Shown one piece after another: positions 1 through 4,476 of a DNA stretch of 4,476 nucleotides. Under the pieces are notes generated by a model. That model did no database searches, was not told where the DNA came from, and saw only the letters and a list, made by a program, of their open reading frames with translations. The stretch lies in IMG/VR virus record IMGVR_UViG_2627853967_000001. The stretch is one strand, 5' to 3'. A program made the translations under genes and the position numbers. The stretch comes from a virus. Lineage: Duplodnaviria > Heunggongvirae > Uroviricota > Caudoviricetes. Every line of letters starts with the position of its first letter. The stretch's first letter is position 1.

Positions 1-471
1 GCTGACGTATGTTGCCACACAGGAGGGATGGTTGTACCTCGCTGGCATCAAGATGTTTATACGTGTGAAATTGTCGGCTACGCCATGGGAGAGCGCATGA
101 CAAAAGAGCTGACAGGTAAAGCCCTGTTTATGGCGCTCAGGAGCCAGCGCCCACCTGCCGGGCTAATCCACCACTCTGATCGAGGTTCACAGTACTGCGC
201 ATACGATTACCGGGTCATACAGGAGCAGTCTGGTCTGAAAACATCAATGTCGCGTAAAGGTAACTGTTACGACAACGCTCCGATGGAAAGCTTCTGGGGA
301 ACGCTGAAAAATGAGAGCCTGAGCCACTATCGTTTTAATAACCGGGATGAAGCCATCTCAGTAATACGGGAATACATTGAGATTTTCTACAATCGTCAGC
401 GTCGTCACTCTCGTCTGGGGAATATCTCCCCGGCAGCCTTCAGGGAAAAATATCATCAGATGGCTGCTTAA
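1..471 (+). pseudogene. IS3-family transposase OrfB (DDE/rve integrase core), C-terminal part; 5' end outside window; frame break near nt 50-55
   Basis: Frame 1 (28..471) encodes HHSDRGSQY...SMSRKGNCYDNAPMESFWGTLKNE...YNRQRRHSRLGNISPAAF, the second Asp and Glu regions of an IS3-family DDE core. Frame 2 (nt 2..52) encodes LTYVATQEGWLYLAGIK, the conserved first-Asp region (IS3 itself has [23 protein letters not shown]). The two halves of one catalytic core therefore sit in different frames, consistent with a 1-nt loss around nt 52 (aag|atg where aag gat is expected). Stop TAA at 469..471. Confidence 0.7.
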
Positions 472-509
472 AAAAAGAACAAATGGTAGTGTCCGCTATT
501 GCCAGTACA
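1..509 (+). mobile_element. IS3-family insertion sequence, right-hand portion (left end outside window)
   Basis: Transposase fragment followed by about 38 bp ending ...GCCAGTACA at 501..509, resembling the TGTACTG-type terminal inverted repeat of IS150-group elements. The exact right boundary (509 to about 516) is uncertain. Confidence 0.55.
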
Positions 510-518
510 CCTCACAGG

Positions 519-1943
519 CTACCTCAAGGCAGCCAGTAATTTGTCTGCATCGACAGGATTTTTGGGCGGAATGTTTTTCCGGGCTTCATGGAGTTCTGCC
601 CGTAGTTCCTGATATTTCTCATCAACAGAATTTACCTGTGACTGAGCATCCAGCGGCTGCGTGTTCTGATGATGTTCAGTTGCATCCGGTTCCATTGTTT
701 CAGCCGTTGCCTGTTCATCTGCCATTGCGCCAGATGGCTGCGTTTTTTCTTCATCATCCTGTTTTCCTTCTTCTGTTACACGTTGCGGCATCGGGGCAGA
801 GGAGCGACCGCAGGCAATATCCACGATTTCCGGATCAGGGTTGGCATGATCGGTTTCAGTCAGTACCTTGTTCAGATATTCAGTGACGTGAGCGGGGATG
901 ACCTCGATACCAATCGGTGCTTCTTTCACTGACGCAACCACGATGGCGCGGGAATAATCCATCCCGCCAGGCATGGTGATGAATTTGTCGCGGAAAACAG
1001 AAAAGGGCGGTTTATTTTCAGCGATAATTTCCTCGACACGTTTAGCGTGTGCCGGATGAAGGTTATAAATGTCCACGTCCATTGAACGAGCCAGTACGCC
1101 AGTGGCTACGTCGCGCGCCAGTGACGTCAGATCGTGAACGAAACCTTCGCCGCGATCGGTGAGGTTCCCGCCGCCAGCATTAGCGCCGGAAGCCGTGCGC
1201 GTGATGCGTGAAACACGATTTCCTTTCATCCACTCTTTTGTCAGCAGACCGCGATCGGTGTAGTCTGCGTCCATGTATGCTTCGAAAAAAGCAGTCATCA
1301 GCCCCAGGCTTGAATTGCCTGGATTAGGGAAAACTCTGTCAGTATCACGCACCAGTTTGTGGAGATCGCGAATTTCCAGCGGATCGAGCAGGCTGGTTTT
1401 GTGGGAAACAGCCAGGGCAGTAACAGCTGGTAGTTCTTCATCCCGAGCAATGTGTAATGCCTGGAGTTCGTCGCGTGAAACGTGCGTTACTGGTTTTTCG
1501 CTGCCGTGTTGCGCAAGCCAGCGAATGGGCAGTTCCTGACCGGAAACTGGCAGGAGCATGTTCTCCTCAATTTCTGTCATGTCTTCGCCGTTGACGTTGG
1601 TATTGTCAGTGCTGGCCGGTTTGTCCTGAACAGAGGGAGAAGATGCGATAAATACCATTGTGATGCCATCTTCCCCGCCTTTTTCGTAACGGTTGCAGAA
1701 TTCCGTATCAAATACGCCTTCTGGCGGGAGGTCATCAACAACGGGCAAATTGACGCGAACAGGTTTTTTAAAGTCATCTTCATCGTAGCCTGCATCGTCA
1801 ATCGCAACAGCACCACGGGAGATGGCAATGGATAATTTTTTCGCTTCAGCCCAGTAAAAACCGCCTTTAATACCGAGACGTTTTCTTACTTTGTCATTTT
1901 TTGCTTCGTAATACAGTGGGTAAACTTGTTTATCGGTGTTCAT
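519..1943 (-). CDS. recE: RecE-like exodeoxyribonuclease VIII, N-terminal region only (474 aa); probably truncated or inactive
   Basis: Long minus-strand ORF with ATG at 1943..1941 and a GAGG motif about 10 nt upstream. The translation contains stretches I recognise from Rac prophage RecE ([80 protein letters not shown]). It lies immediately downstream of racC/ydaE/kilR homologues. It ends at TAG 519..521, whereas K-12 RecE is 866 aa with a C-terminal nuclease domain. Confidence 0.65.
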
Positions 1944-2013
1944 TGTTTTTTAACCTCAACTCAGATTAAAATTACTGCGAGTGATGAATAAATGTCCCAG
2001 GTTCTTCATTCAG

Positions 2014-2043
2014 GCCTGCACAGTGTGCAGGCTTTCTTTTTTT
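2014..2043 (+). terminator. Intrinsic-terminator-like hairpin plus T-tract, oriented for the + strand (antisense to the operon)
   Basis: GCCTGCACA-G-TGTGCAGGC (2014..2032, perfect 9-nt arms, GC-rich) is followed directly by TTTCTTTTTTT (2033..2043). On the minus strand the same hairpin is followed by CUGAAUGAAG, so it is not a terminator for the operon sense. Confidence 0.4.
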
Positions 2044-2318
2044 CAGATTTCACCTTTTAATTTCATTGCAATCAGAGTTGCCAGAAATTCGGCTTTTTTT
2101 TCTGCGGGCAGATTCTTTCCTATGTGCACCAGACACATTTTTTTTACACCATCGTTAAGTGTTTTAACGTTGCCTGATGGACCGTCGATATCAACCACAG
2201 TGAATGGGGTTTCTTTATTTTCTGTCTTAATCACGTAGCCAATACGCTTTCCTTCCAGATTAACCTCGTGAACAATGTCATCAGTAGTTACAACAGTGGC
2301 TTCATAACTGGTAATCAT
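2043..2318 (-). CDS. racC: RacC-like Rac prophage protein (91 aa)
   Basis: ORF-track entry 2043..2366, trimmed to the internal ATG at 2318..2316, which has a strong Shine-Dalgarno (AAGGAG then AAAAAC then ATG). The product MITSYEATVVTTDDIVHEVNLEGKRIGYVIK... is 91 aa, the length of K-12 RacC. Stop TGA at 2043..2045. Confidence 0.7.
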   Translation of the reverse strand: MITSYEATVVTTDDIVHEVNLEGKRIGYVIKTENKETPFTVVDIDGPSGNVKTLNDGVKKMCLVHIGKNLPAEKKAEFLATLIAMKLKGEI

Positions 2319-2392
2319 GTTTTTCTCCTTAATTAAGGTTGAGCGAATCCCTGCCATTGCTGGCATAAATTCAGTTTCGGATAGTCAGTTAA

Positions 2393-2563
2393 TTAAAGTT
2401 CGTGTGCCATCTGGTCTTTTTCGGCACAGATTTCACTACAATATTTTTTCATTTCCGTCGTTGGTATAACTCCACGCATGAAATGAAGTGGTCTTGTAAT
2501 GATTTTGCTTTCTTCAATTTCTTTATTGCAAAGGTGATAAGCACATTTTATTTTCTTAGTCAT
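2393..2563 (-). CDS. ydaE: YdaE-like small zinc-ribbon protein (56 aa)
   Basis: Hand translation of the minus strand gives [56 protein letters not shown], with stop TAA at 2393..2395. It has two Cys pairs (C-x4-C and C-x3-C). Its ATG at 2563..2561 overlaps the kilR stop (TAATG) and is preceded by AAGGCGGAG. It is too short to appear in the ORF track. Confidence 0.6.
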   Translation of the reverse strand: MTKKIKCAYHLCNKEIEESKIITRPLHFMRGVIPTTEMKKYCSEICAEKDQMAHEL

Positions 2564-2784
2564 TACCATGACTCCGCCTTTACAGGTAAACCATCACGAC
2601 CGAGGAAGACTTTAATCATGCAGTCAGAAATGCATGTTTTTGTAGTCAGGCTACGAATATAAAGTTTTCGCTTTTTAATATTGTTTGCCGAGGCGATATA
2701 TGTCCGACCTTCATGAAGAATATAATCGCCAGGAGTCACACACTGACGTGGTATTTCATCAGTTCCGAAGTGATGAGCAATCAT
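2563..2784 (-). CDS. kilR: KilR-like Rac prophage cell-division inhibitor (73 aa)
   Basis: The 73-aa [76 protein letters not shown] matches the length and sequence I recall for K-12 KilR. A strong Shine-Dalgarno (AAGGAGG) lies 5 nt upstream of the ATG at 2784. Gene order kilR, ydaE, racC, recE matches Rac. Confidence 0.8.
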
Positions 2785-2844
2785 GGAAGCCTCCTTAATA
2801 AACAGTCTTACAAAGGAAATCTCAGGAAAGTTATTTAATACTTA

Positions 2845-2849
2845 GCAGC
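2845..2849. repeat. IS2 target-site duplication, GCAGC (copy at IRR side)
   Basis: The 5 bp immediately outside the IS2 terminus at 2850 are gcagc, identical to the 5 bp at 4181..4185 outside the other terminus. IS2 makes 5-bp duplications. Confidence 0.8.
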
Positions 2850-2890
2850 TGGATTTGCCCCTATATTTCCAGACATCTGTTATCACTTAA
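2850..2890 (-). repeat. IS2 right inverted repeat (IRR), terminus ...CA
   Basis: The 41 bp at the element end share GCCCC, TCCAGACA and TATCACTTA blocks with the left repeat. Confidence 0.7.
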
Positions 2891-3766
2891 CCCATTACAA
2901 GCCCGCTGCCGCAGATATTCCCGTGGCGAGCGATAACCCAGCGCACTATGCGGATGCCATTCGTTATAATGCTCGAACGCCTCTGCAAGGTTCTTTGCTG
3001 CCGTTAACCCGTCTGGTTTGGGCATGATACTGATGTAGTCACGCTTTATCGTTTTCACGAAGCTCTCTGCTATTCCGTTACTCTCCGGACTCCGCACCGC
3101 CGTGTTCTTCGGTTCAAGTCCCAACATCCGGGCGAACTGGCGTGTTTCATTAGCCCGGTAGCATGAACCATTATCCGTCAGCCACTCCACTGGAGACGAC
3201 GGAAGATCGTTGCCGAAGCGGCGTTCCACCGCTCCCAGCATGACGTCCTGTACTGTTTCACTGTTGAAGCCGCCGGTAGTCACCGCCCAGTGCAGTGCCT
3301 CACGATCACAGCAGTCCAGCGCGAACGTGACACGCAGTCTCTCTCCGTTATCACAGCAGAACTCGAACCCGTCAGAGCACCATCGCTGATTGCTTTCTTT
3401 CACGGCCACTCTGCCTGTATGTGCCCGTTTCGATGGCGGTACAGCAGGTTTTCGCTCAAGCAACAGCGCATTCTGGCGCATGAGCCGGTAAACACGTTTG
3501 GCATTGATCGCAGGCATACCATCAAGTTCTGCCTGTCTGCGAAGCAGCGCCCATACCCGACGATAACCATACGTGGGCAGCTCTCCGATAACATGGTGTA
3601 TACGGAGAAGCACATCCGTATCATCAGTGTGACGACTGCGGCGGCCATCCATCCAGTCATCGGTTCGTCTGAGAATGACGTGCAACTGCGCACGCGACAC
3701 CCGGAGACAACGGCTGACTAAGCTTACTCCCCATCCCCGGGCAATAAGGGCGCGTGCGCTATCCAC
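2861..3766 (-). CDS. insD: IS2 transposase OrfB (InsD), 301-aa frame; normally expressed as an InsCD fusion by -1 frameshifting
   Basis: The translation [23 protein letters not shown]...[29 protein letters not shown] matches IS2 InsD along its full length. It overlaps the insC 3' end in the -1 frame. Confidence 0.9.
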
Positions 3767-4134
3767 TTTTTTGCCCGTCCATATTCAACGGCTTCTTTGA
3801 GGAGTTCATTTTCCATCGTTTTCTTGCCGAGCAGGCGCTGGAGTTCTTTAATCTGCTTCATGGCGGCAGCAAGTTCAGAGGCAGGAACAACCTGTTCTCC
3901 GGCGGCCACAGCAGTAAGACTTCCTTCCTGGTATTGCTTACGCCAGAGAAATAACTGGCTGGCTGCTACACCATGTTGCCGGGCAACGAGGGAGACCGTC
4001 ATCCCCGGTTCAAAGCTCTGCTGAACAATTGCGATCTTTTCCTGTGTGGTACGCCGTCTGCGTTTCTCCGGCCCTAAGACATCAATAATCTGTTCTCCAA
4101 TGACAAGTCTAAAAACTGGTATTAAGACTATCAC
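3724..4134 (-). CDS. insC: IS2 OrfA (InsC) regulatory/DNA-binding protein; conserved 121-aa region is 3724..4089; the canonical start codon position reads ATT
   Basis: The translation ...[53 protein letters not shown]...LLPGDGE matches IS2 InsC. The codon where InsC normally begins (4089..4087) is ATT, not ATG, though it is still preceded by GGAGAACAG. The only in-frame NTG upstream is GTG at 4134, inside the left inverted repeat and with no Shine-Dalgarno. Confidence 0.8.
3766..3772 (-). other. Programmed -1 ribosomal frameshift heptamer A-AAA-AAG (insC to insD)
   Basis: Minus-strand sequence GCA AAA AAG TGG in the insC frame; a shift to -1 reads AAA AAA GTG GAT AGC, the start of the InsD frame. 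It sits exactly at the insC/insD overlap. Confidence 0.6.
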
Positions 4135-4138
4135 TTAA

Positions 4139-4180
4139 ATAAGTGATACTGGTTGTCTGGAGATTCAGGGGGCCAGTCTA
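4139..4180 (-). repeat. IS2 left inverted repeat (IRL), terminus TA; contains the palindrome TATCACTTA-TT-TAAGTGATA
   Basis: Revcomp of 4139..4180 is TAGACTGGCCCCCTGAATCTCCAGACAACCAGTATCACTTAT. Confidence 0.7.
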
Positions 4181-4185
4181 GCAGC
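4181..4185. repeat. IS2 target-site duplication, GCAGC (copy at IRL side)
   Basis: Identical to 2845..2849. Confidence 0.8.
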
Positions 4186-4364
4186 TGCTCTACGGTCATA
4201 TTTTTAATTGCGCTCCGGTTTACAAGAGCCCACCCCTGTTTTTCCAGATAAAACTGGAAAGTATCCAGGGTACAGACCAGTGCACCGTCAGGAACAGTTT
4301 CGGTGAATCTGATATTGCCGTGTTCGTCGAAGTGCACAACCAGAGTGCGACCGTTACCCGGAAT
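4181..4364 (-). pseudogene. Internal fragment (61 codons) of an unidentified prophage gene, cut by IS2 on both sides; its last 4 codons and stop lie at 2831..2849
   Basis: Open minus-strand frame across the whole 184-bp segment: IPGNGRTLVVHFDEHGNIRFTETVPDGALVCTLDTFQFYLEKQGWALVNRSAIKNMTVEQL. Removing IS2 and one copy of the duplication joins it in frame to ...LSIK-TAA (stop at 2831..2833), 47 bp upstream of kilR. The ORF-track entry 4131..4337 is this fragment read through into the IS2 left repeat. Confidence 0.45.
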
Positions 4365-4476
4365 TAGACTGGCCCCCTGAATCTCCAGACAACCAGTATC
4401 ACTTATTTAAGTGATAGTCTTAATACCAGTTTTTAGACTTGTCATTGGAGAACAGATTATTGATGTCTTAGGGCCG
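4365..4476 (+). mobile_element. IS2, second copy, left end only (continues beyond window), + orientation
   Basis: 4365..4476 is identical to the reverse complement of 4069..4180 (IS2 left repeat and insC leader), starting TAGACTGGCCCCC. Confidence 0.9.
4411..4476 (+). CDS. insC: IS2 OrfA (InsC) of the second copy, 5' part only; canonical start position 4456..4458 reads ATT
   Basis: GGAGAACAG ATT ATT GAT GTC TTA GGG CCG encodes (I)IDVLGP. The in-frame GTG at 4411 is the only upstream NTG. Confidence 0.45.
   Translation, partial: MIVLIPVFRLVIGEQIIDVLGP

Follow-up and report, generated by a model that had tools for sequence, protein, structure and literature searches.

Within the 4,476-nt stretch of DNA that we analysed (hereafter the window), an intact kilR is followed by ydaE, racC and codons 1 to 474 of recE, all on one strand, i.e., in the order of a Rac-type module. 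The kilR gene (2563..2784, minus strand) comprises 73 codons and encodes an inhibitor of FtsZ and MreB; its product matched the entire NF008465 profile, "FtsZ inhibitor protein" (positions 1-73/73; 159.4 bits, cutoff 92), carries the PF27398 assignment, and is identical at 72/73 positions to each of the two E. coli KilR proteins with which it was compared (L001 and L002). Next to it lies ydaE (2393..2563, minus strand; NF041288, YdaE_coli, 87.5 bits, cutoff 35), which in related loci is a 56-aa gene overlapping the kilR stop codon. The racC-type gene (2043..2318, minus strand) occupies 91 codons inside a 107-codon open reading frame (2043..2366), where the NF007306/PRK09790 profile was matched throughout (1-91/91, at residues 17-107; 203.4 bits, cutoff 171), and it is likewise called as a 91-aa gene in related loci. 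Searches against a local copy of Pfam returned nothing on KilR, the RacC-type protein or the Rha fragment described below, and all three were resolved with NCBIfam.

The module ends in a truncated gene, recE' (519..1943, minus strand), which retains the N-terminal 474 codons of exodeoxyribonuclease VIII (PF06630) and lacks the nuclease C-terminal half; because of this truncation, its match to NF007259 (profile positions 1-474 of 877) fell below the cutoff. More specifically, recE is cut after codon 474 of 877 by IS600, with loss of the nuclease domain, and the lesion is common to all related genomes. The 3' part of this IS3-family element (1..514, plus strand) consists of a transposase C-terminal open reading frame (28..471) and the right end; it was recognized from the annotation "IS3-like element IS600 family transposase," from rve domains and from transpos_IS3, and other IS600 copies in related loci match the window over 2..514/517. 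Gene order in the window is the same as in the Rac prophage of E. coli K-12 (kilR-ydaE-racC-recET), and KilR, YdaE, the RacC-type protein and the RecE N terminus are near-identical. In contrast to Rac, the window has an upstream module of the rha/ydfC type, unlike most E. coli, its recE is truncated, and its repressor region is lost. No structured RNA in the window gave an Rfam match at E<=0.1.

Upstream of kilR lies a 65-bp leader (2785..2849, minus strand) that contains the former stop codon of rha, the Shine-Dalgarno sequence of kilR (AAGGAGG) and one copy of a 5-bp duplication (2845-2849). It is followed by a complete IS2 (2850..4180, minus strand), by the second copy of the duplication (4181..4185), and by an island (4186..4364, minus strand; 184 bp with the duplication copy counted) that retains 59 codons for the C-terminal region of a phage regulator of the Rha family and has IS2 on either side. 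The left end of the second IS2 (its first 112 nt; 4365..4476, plus strand) is identical at 112/112 positions to the left end of the first copy and runs off the window. This second element is inverted relative to the first, from which it is separated by 184 bp, and lies in rha.

Structure of the IS2 element and its junction with rha

The element upstream of kilR measures exactly 1331 bp, and consists of the right terminal repeat (IRR, 2850..2890), orfB (2861..3766), the slippery site (3766..3772), orfA (3724..4089) and the left terminal repeat (IRL, 4139..4180). Its terminal repeats are imperfect, with a 41-bp IRR ending in CA-3' and a 42-bp IRL ending in TA; the IRR is identical at 41/41 positions to the IRR oligonucleotide printed in PMC3219604, and the IRL opens TAGACTGGCCCCC. 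Both proteins matched their NCBIfam profiles above cutoff and over the full length, namely, NF006928 for IS2 TnpA (1-121/121, 274.8 bits) and NF006918 for IS2 TnpB (1-301/301, 726.7 bits). The two frames, orfA (the repressor) and orfB, overlap as expected for -1 frameshifting at an A6G site (AAAAAAG), which is located at IS2 positions 409-415, i.e., window positions 3766-3772. Relative to an E. coli IS2 copy, the element is 99.4% identical. Directly outside its two ends stands the same pentamer, GCAGC, a perfect direct repeat of the length typical of IS2 target duplications, for which the chance expectation is about 1 in 1024; in seven related genomes the flanks at 4181..4185 are identical. 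By all structural features tested the element is IS2, and its sole departure is an ATT at the start of orfA. Compared with other IS2 insertions in Shigella, it is alike in its 1331 bp, its 41- and 42-bp imperfect ends, its orfA/orfB arrangement with A6G site, and its 5-bp duplication, as well as in its host lineage, in its association with pseudogenization and break-up of genes and prophages, and in occupying a site common to related strains; nothing in it differs in kind, what is particular being the site and the ATT.

The site was defined by comparison with loci devoid of the insertion. Removal of IS2 together with one repeat copy yielded a sequence that aligned colinearly with the intact rha-kilR junction of E. 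coli F1 E4, where a 282-aa Rha-family regulator ends in ...MTVEQLLSIK*, 46 bp before kilR. The Rha identity derives from the intact 282-aa protein in L002 (TIGR02681), and an uninterrupted rha-kilR site with colinear flanks was found in 87 complete E. coli genomes at ~89% identity. Its description of a full-length IS2, flanked by a GCAGC duplication, 65 bp upstream of kilR and in the same orientation, was likewise borne out by exact coordinates and full-length NCBIfam matches: the IS2 tip stands exactly 65 bp from the kilR ATG, and the IS2 genes and kilR share the minus strand. The intact target duplication and the colinearity of the healed sequence also uphold its reading of the event as a simple insertion. 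In the case of the upstream gene, the claim that the last four codons were removed stands insofar as the 3' end of rha is clipped. However, the cut falls within the fourth codon from the end, and the first two bases of IS2 (TA) complete it again as Leu, so that the loss amounts to three residues (S-I-K) rather than four, against a gain of 15 IS2-encoded residues; the fragment thus reads ...MTVEQLL before running into IS2. The resulting 68-aa Rha'-IS2 fusion reading frame is not on record. The sequence of the two junctions shows how the insertion arose: a 5-bp staggered cleavage of the target GCAGC in the last codons of rha, integration with IRR adjoining kilR, and repair that converted the staggered ends into the direct repeat, an ordinary case of copy-and-paste transposition.

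The start of orfA sets this copy apart from the E. coli IS2 copy. The codon at window positions 4087..4089 (IS2 positions 92-94) is ATT, so that orfA has no ATG behind its Shine-Dalgarno sequence as an autonomous copy would have; the TnpA profile match begins exactly at this ATT, and ATG occupies the position in the E. coli copy and, at the same insertion site, in L003, L006, L008, L009 and L010. Judging from the codon change, the window IS2 may be non-autonomous, and its identity as IS2 is unaffected. Two further changes, at window positions 4105 and 4118 (IS2 positions 76 and 63), are linked with the ATT inside a 32-bp stretch of the 5' leader, such that one orthologous insertion exists as two alleles: T63/A76/G94 in the five genomes just named, and C63/T76/T94 in the window, L004, L005, L007 and L012. 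The second IS2 in the window carries the C/T/T allele as well. A partial IS2 on pWR100 also has ATT, with the canonical bases at positions 63 and 76. Such clustering of allelic changes suggests gene conversion between IS2 copies.

Distribution of the insertion and decay of the surrounding prophage

Related genomes were retrieved by means of the exact 474-aa truncated RecE product, which has index entries in 865 blocks of the public collection, and eight complete genomes (L003 to L010) were compared. All eight match window positions 2..4364 at 99.8-99.9%. Both IS2 ends and the same duplication were present at the same nucleotide in seven of them; in the other (L003), the IRR end is in the same place and the match extends across the whole IS2, a variant in the IRL having escaped the exact-match check. 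Two further genomes, namely, an S. flexneri genome (L013) and L012 (labelled Escherichia coli), contain the exact 41-nt kilR-side junction, which brings the related complete genomes with IS2 at this site to ten and those with the exact junction to 9/10. The kilR-IS2 junction was found in 0/5,426 complete E. coli genomes in RefSeq. We note that L012 (CP178302.1, Escherichia coli ECMA0423, 4.44 Mb) combines the S. flexneri-type kilR-IS2 junction with the C/T/T allele; it is likely to be a Shigella or EIEC-like genome deposited under the name E. coli. Assignment of the related genomes to S. flexneri draws on one record title (L013), on a nearby ipaH gene and on accession context, and is a matter of labels and gene content rather than of phylogeny.

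This distribution runs counter to the earlier suggestion that the insertion is probably recent: IS2 is at the site in ten related genomes, the exact junction is in nine, and the orthologous insertion has since split into two alleles. Instead, we regard it as almost certain that the element is a simple IS2 insertion and that the lineage has inherited it. The event most probably took place once, in an ancestor of the S. flexneri genomes that carry IS2 at the site, and has been passed on since as part of an IS-driven decay of the prophage. The related genomes also differ among themselves by other IS insertions and by rearrangements around the locus. In keeping with inheritance, S. flexneri lineages have about a third of their IS sites in common, owing to an expansion that goes back to their shared ancestor, and the five elements that expanded in Shigella (IS1, IS2, IS4, IS600 and IS911) include both IS2 and IS600 (Hawkey et al. 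2020, PMC7373316).

Misplacement or collapse of a multicopy IS2 during assembly could in principle mimic an insertion at this position. IS2 is multicopy in Shigella, repeats of this kind are a classic source of misassembly, and the inverted second copy 184 bp away was seen only in this window. In opposition to such an artefact, however, nine independently assembled complete genomes have an identical kilR-side junction, seven of them with both ends and the duplication, and misassembly does not generate a 5-bp target duplication at a site that is colinear once healed. We therefore consider an artefact at the first copy scarcely credible, and the doubt is confined to the second copy at 4365. None of the 10 related complete genomes has that copy, and its junction was not found in genome_contigs or metagenome_contigs; in view of these absences, the copy reflects either an insertion peculiar to this strain or an error of assembly. 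The arrangement of the whole window was present in none of the complete E. coli genomes searched. If the second IS2 is full length, the pair would form a 1.3-kb inverted repeat around the 184-bp rha fragment.

The insertion is one of several lesions in the region. In the intact relatives L002 and L011, the ancestral early-left order is repressor-DUF1391-ydfC-rha-(kilR)-ydaE-racC-recE. Related S. flexneri loci resemble this intact operon only from the 3' tip of ydfC onward; the region with the repressor, DUF1391, the operator and the promoter is missing, its place being taken by IS debris or, in a single genome, by IS1 together with chromosomal genes. The earlier note had IS2 placing 1.3 kb between kilR-ydaE-racC-recE and the promoter that drove them; the 1.3 kb is indeed inserted, but the native promoter region is already absent in related loci. 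Moreover, rha is split in related S. flexneri loci into two open reading frames (210 aa and 97 aa; L004 6925..7813), which is why we regard it as frameshifted. In L004, this rha interval and the segment 5701..5846 mark the upstream decay. Given that native control has been lost upstream, rha is frameshifted, recE is cut and a second IS2 lies in rha, the IS2 next to kilR represents only one of these lesions. The locus is a decaying lambdoid prophage remnant with a Rac-like recombination module.

The module is also mosaic. The best E. coli matches (~97% over 527..2784) extend precisely to the kilR start codon and no farther, i.e., to the 2784/2785 boundary, and past it only the 87 genomes mentioned above continue, into the rha-type module at ~89%. 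Because matches end at this codon, at least two alternative modules exist upstream of kilR in nature. In the 21-kb loci taken from L003 to L010, a gene for an ipaH-type effector (LRR_TTSS and NEL) is located a few kb upstream of the kilR module, and the genes downstream of the module encode Gam, an AAA_24 ATPase, a partial phage integrase and a ZnuA/ABC-type metal transporter cluster, the last of which is presumably sitABCD. One of these genomes, L008, has a different left-hand context (the manXYZ side), indicative of rearrangement at an IS-rich spot. According to PMC4632033, a rac-like prophage is absent from ttcA in the S. flexneri strains covered there, and thus the kilR module belongs to another island.

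As an event, an IS insertion in a Shigella prophage remnant is of a textbook type, ordinary and one among hundreds of its kind, and the insertion at this site is present and annotated in many public genomes. Our literature search found no paper that names the rha-kilR site of IS2 (in the last rha codons, 65 bp before kilR). It adds one more fixed IS2 site to the S. flexneri lineage, which in itself carries little weight beyond bookkeeping.

Transcription toward kilR

The kilR gene is normally silent, being kept off by RacR and by Rho/NusG, and its product is toxic when expressed (PMC12482147). We examined the junction for signals that could alter this state. A scan for sigma-70 consensus sites in 2400..4476 found 0, with 2.4 expected by chance, a scan of this kind being liable to miss weak or non-sigma-70 promoters. 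Likewise, the consensus scan revealed no promoter-like or terminator-like site in the 65-bp leader, and the 76 nt that run from the orfB stop (2861) to the kilR ATG contain no terminator-like hairpin. A promoter within the leader was accordingly rejected by consensus criteria.

IS2 can itself supply part of a promoter. Its outward-facing IRR -35 feeds fusion promoters of ampC, acrEF and neoR (PMC9330008), and the end of IS2 that abuts kilR is this right end, which raises the possibility that the IRR -35 and a flanking -10 form a new, strong kilR promoter. The IS2 junction promoter, whose -10 is at the IRL tip, needs a spacer of exactly 17 bp (PMC3219604, PMC3299598), and from this geometry the IRR -35 can be placed at TGGAAA, 17-22 nt from the IRR tip. 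The flanking hexamers at 16, 17 and 18 bp from TGGAAA (GCTGCT, CTGCTA and TGCTAA, respectively) share 2, 0 and 2 of 6 positions with TATAAT, and in none of them do positions 2 and 6 read A and T. Hence, no -10-like hexamer lies at 17 +/-1 bp from the IRR -35, and the general scan across the junction did not reveal a promoter-like site either. In the ampC::IS2 case (Jaurin and Normark 1983), as summarised in PMC9330008, the outward -35 of the IS2 right end similarly faces the downstream gene, but ampC had a -10 at the right distance, whereas the kilR flank has none. Since the IRR -35 has no partner at the right spacing, the sequence excludes such a hybrid promoter, and we rate it as very improbable. 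With neither a -10 for the IRR -35 nor a promoter in the leader, kilR is left without a dedicated promoter; IS2 would supply no usable outward promoter.

Any remaining transcription would have to enter from within or beyond IS2. The promoter PIRL, whose extended -10 lies inside the element (4125..4133, minus strand), is weak, belongs to the extended -10 class and is under OrfA repression (PMC3219604, PMC3299598). We searched the transcription start site tables of S. flexneri M90T (PMC7132871; chromosome rows up to 654 kb) by gene name and with 14-mers tiling the junction. The sole match was an IS2 end on pWR100, which represents an ordinary PIRL start, the transcription start site falling immediately after ...TGATAGTCTTAATACTA; PIRL therefore fires in S. 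flexneri at this left end. With its own promoter absent and the ancestral one gone, we infer that the only plausible source of kilR transcription is read-through from PIRL.

How much of that transcription reaches kilR determines the reading of the locus, and two outcomes have to be weighed; the suggestion in the earlier note that IS2 may silence kilR by polarity or change its regulation is a reasonable speculation. Transcription from PIRL, or from farther upstream, might leave IS2 at its right end and constitute the main source of kilR-ydaE-racC mRNA, much as with rusA. The shared orientation, the lack of a terminator-like structure from the orfB stop to the kilR ATG, the absence of the native promoter region from related loci and the activity of PIRL on pWR100 would all favour such activation. 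The sense strand of IS2 is also G-rich rather than C-rich (C/G 0.62-1.0); such a composition makes a poor substrate for Rho and is unlike that expected of strong Rho loading sites, so that IS2 in this orientation may be incompletely polar, although as evidence the base composition carries little weight in either direction. There is also a precedent: according to PMC1636454, an IS2 insertion upstream switches on quiescent rusA. In that allele, rus-1, the gene that IS2 likewise immediately precedes belongs to a defective lambdoid prophage (DLP12) and is normally silent. As portrayed there, however, rus-1 is a laboratory-selected gain of expression with demonstrated activation, whereas the insertion in the window is known from sequence, has no such selection behind it and precedes a toxic gene. 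Further points argue against activation, namely, that PIRL is weak and OrfA-repressed, with many other IS2 copies supplying OrfA in trans; that ~900 nt of orfB would go largely untranslated, favouring Rho termination; and that KilR is toxic and yet the arrangement has been stably inherited with kilR intact. On balance, we see activation as a serious but unlikely outcome.

We favour the other outcome, in which kilR is insulated or silenced by its IS2 context, and consider it probable, if by no wide measure, from the arrangement of the locus. IS2 adds 1.3 kb between kilR and anything upstream, of which ~900 nt (orfB) is mostly untranslated, and this untranslated RNA would favour Rho termination. 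Consequently kilR would most likely be silent, or would yield only very little transcript through read-through from PIRL, which is weak and repressed by OrfA; the stable inheritance of a toxic, intact kilR points to low or no expression. A toxic gene insulated in such a way could persist intact, as observed, and the locus shows a toxic prophage gene surviving intact once IS insertions and deletions sever its promoter. Should kilR be expressed by read-through from IS2, the locus would instead be a small natural counterpart of the laboratory activation in rus-1.

A more elaborate proposal is that kilR in S. flexneri, devoid of native control, depends solely on read-through of the IS2 transposase mRNA, its dosage being tied to OrfA and Rho; the ATG and ATT alleles, the latter with its two 5'-leader changes, might then set lineage-specific KilR levels, and the second copy with ATT would imply that mobilisation of IS2 does not require an AUG start. 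We regard this combination as improbable.

Finally, at window positions 4138..4139 (IS2 positions 42-43), the 14-bp palindrome that reads CACTTA-AA-TAAGTG in the E. coli IS2 copy is CACTTA-TT-TAAGTG in the window, i.e., its exact reverse complement, and this change falls within IS2 residues 39-48, the binding sequence of the OrfA repressor (PMC3299598).
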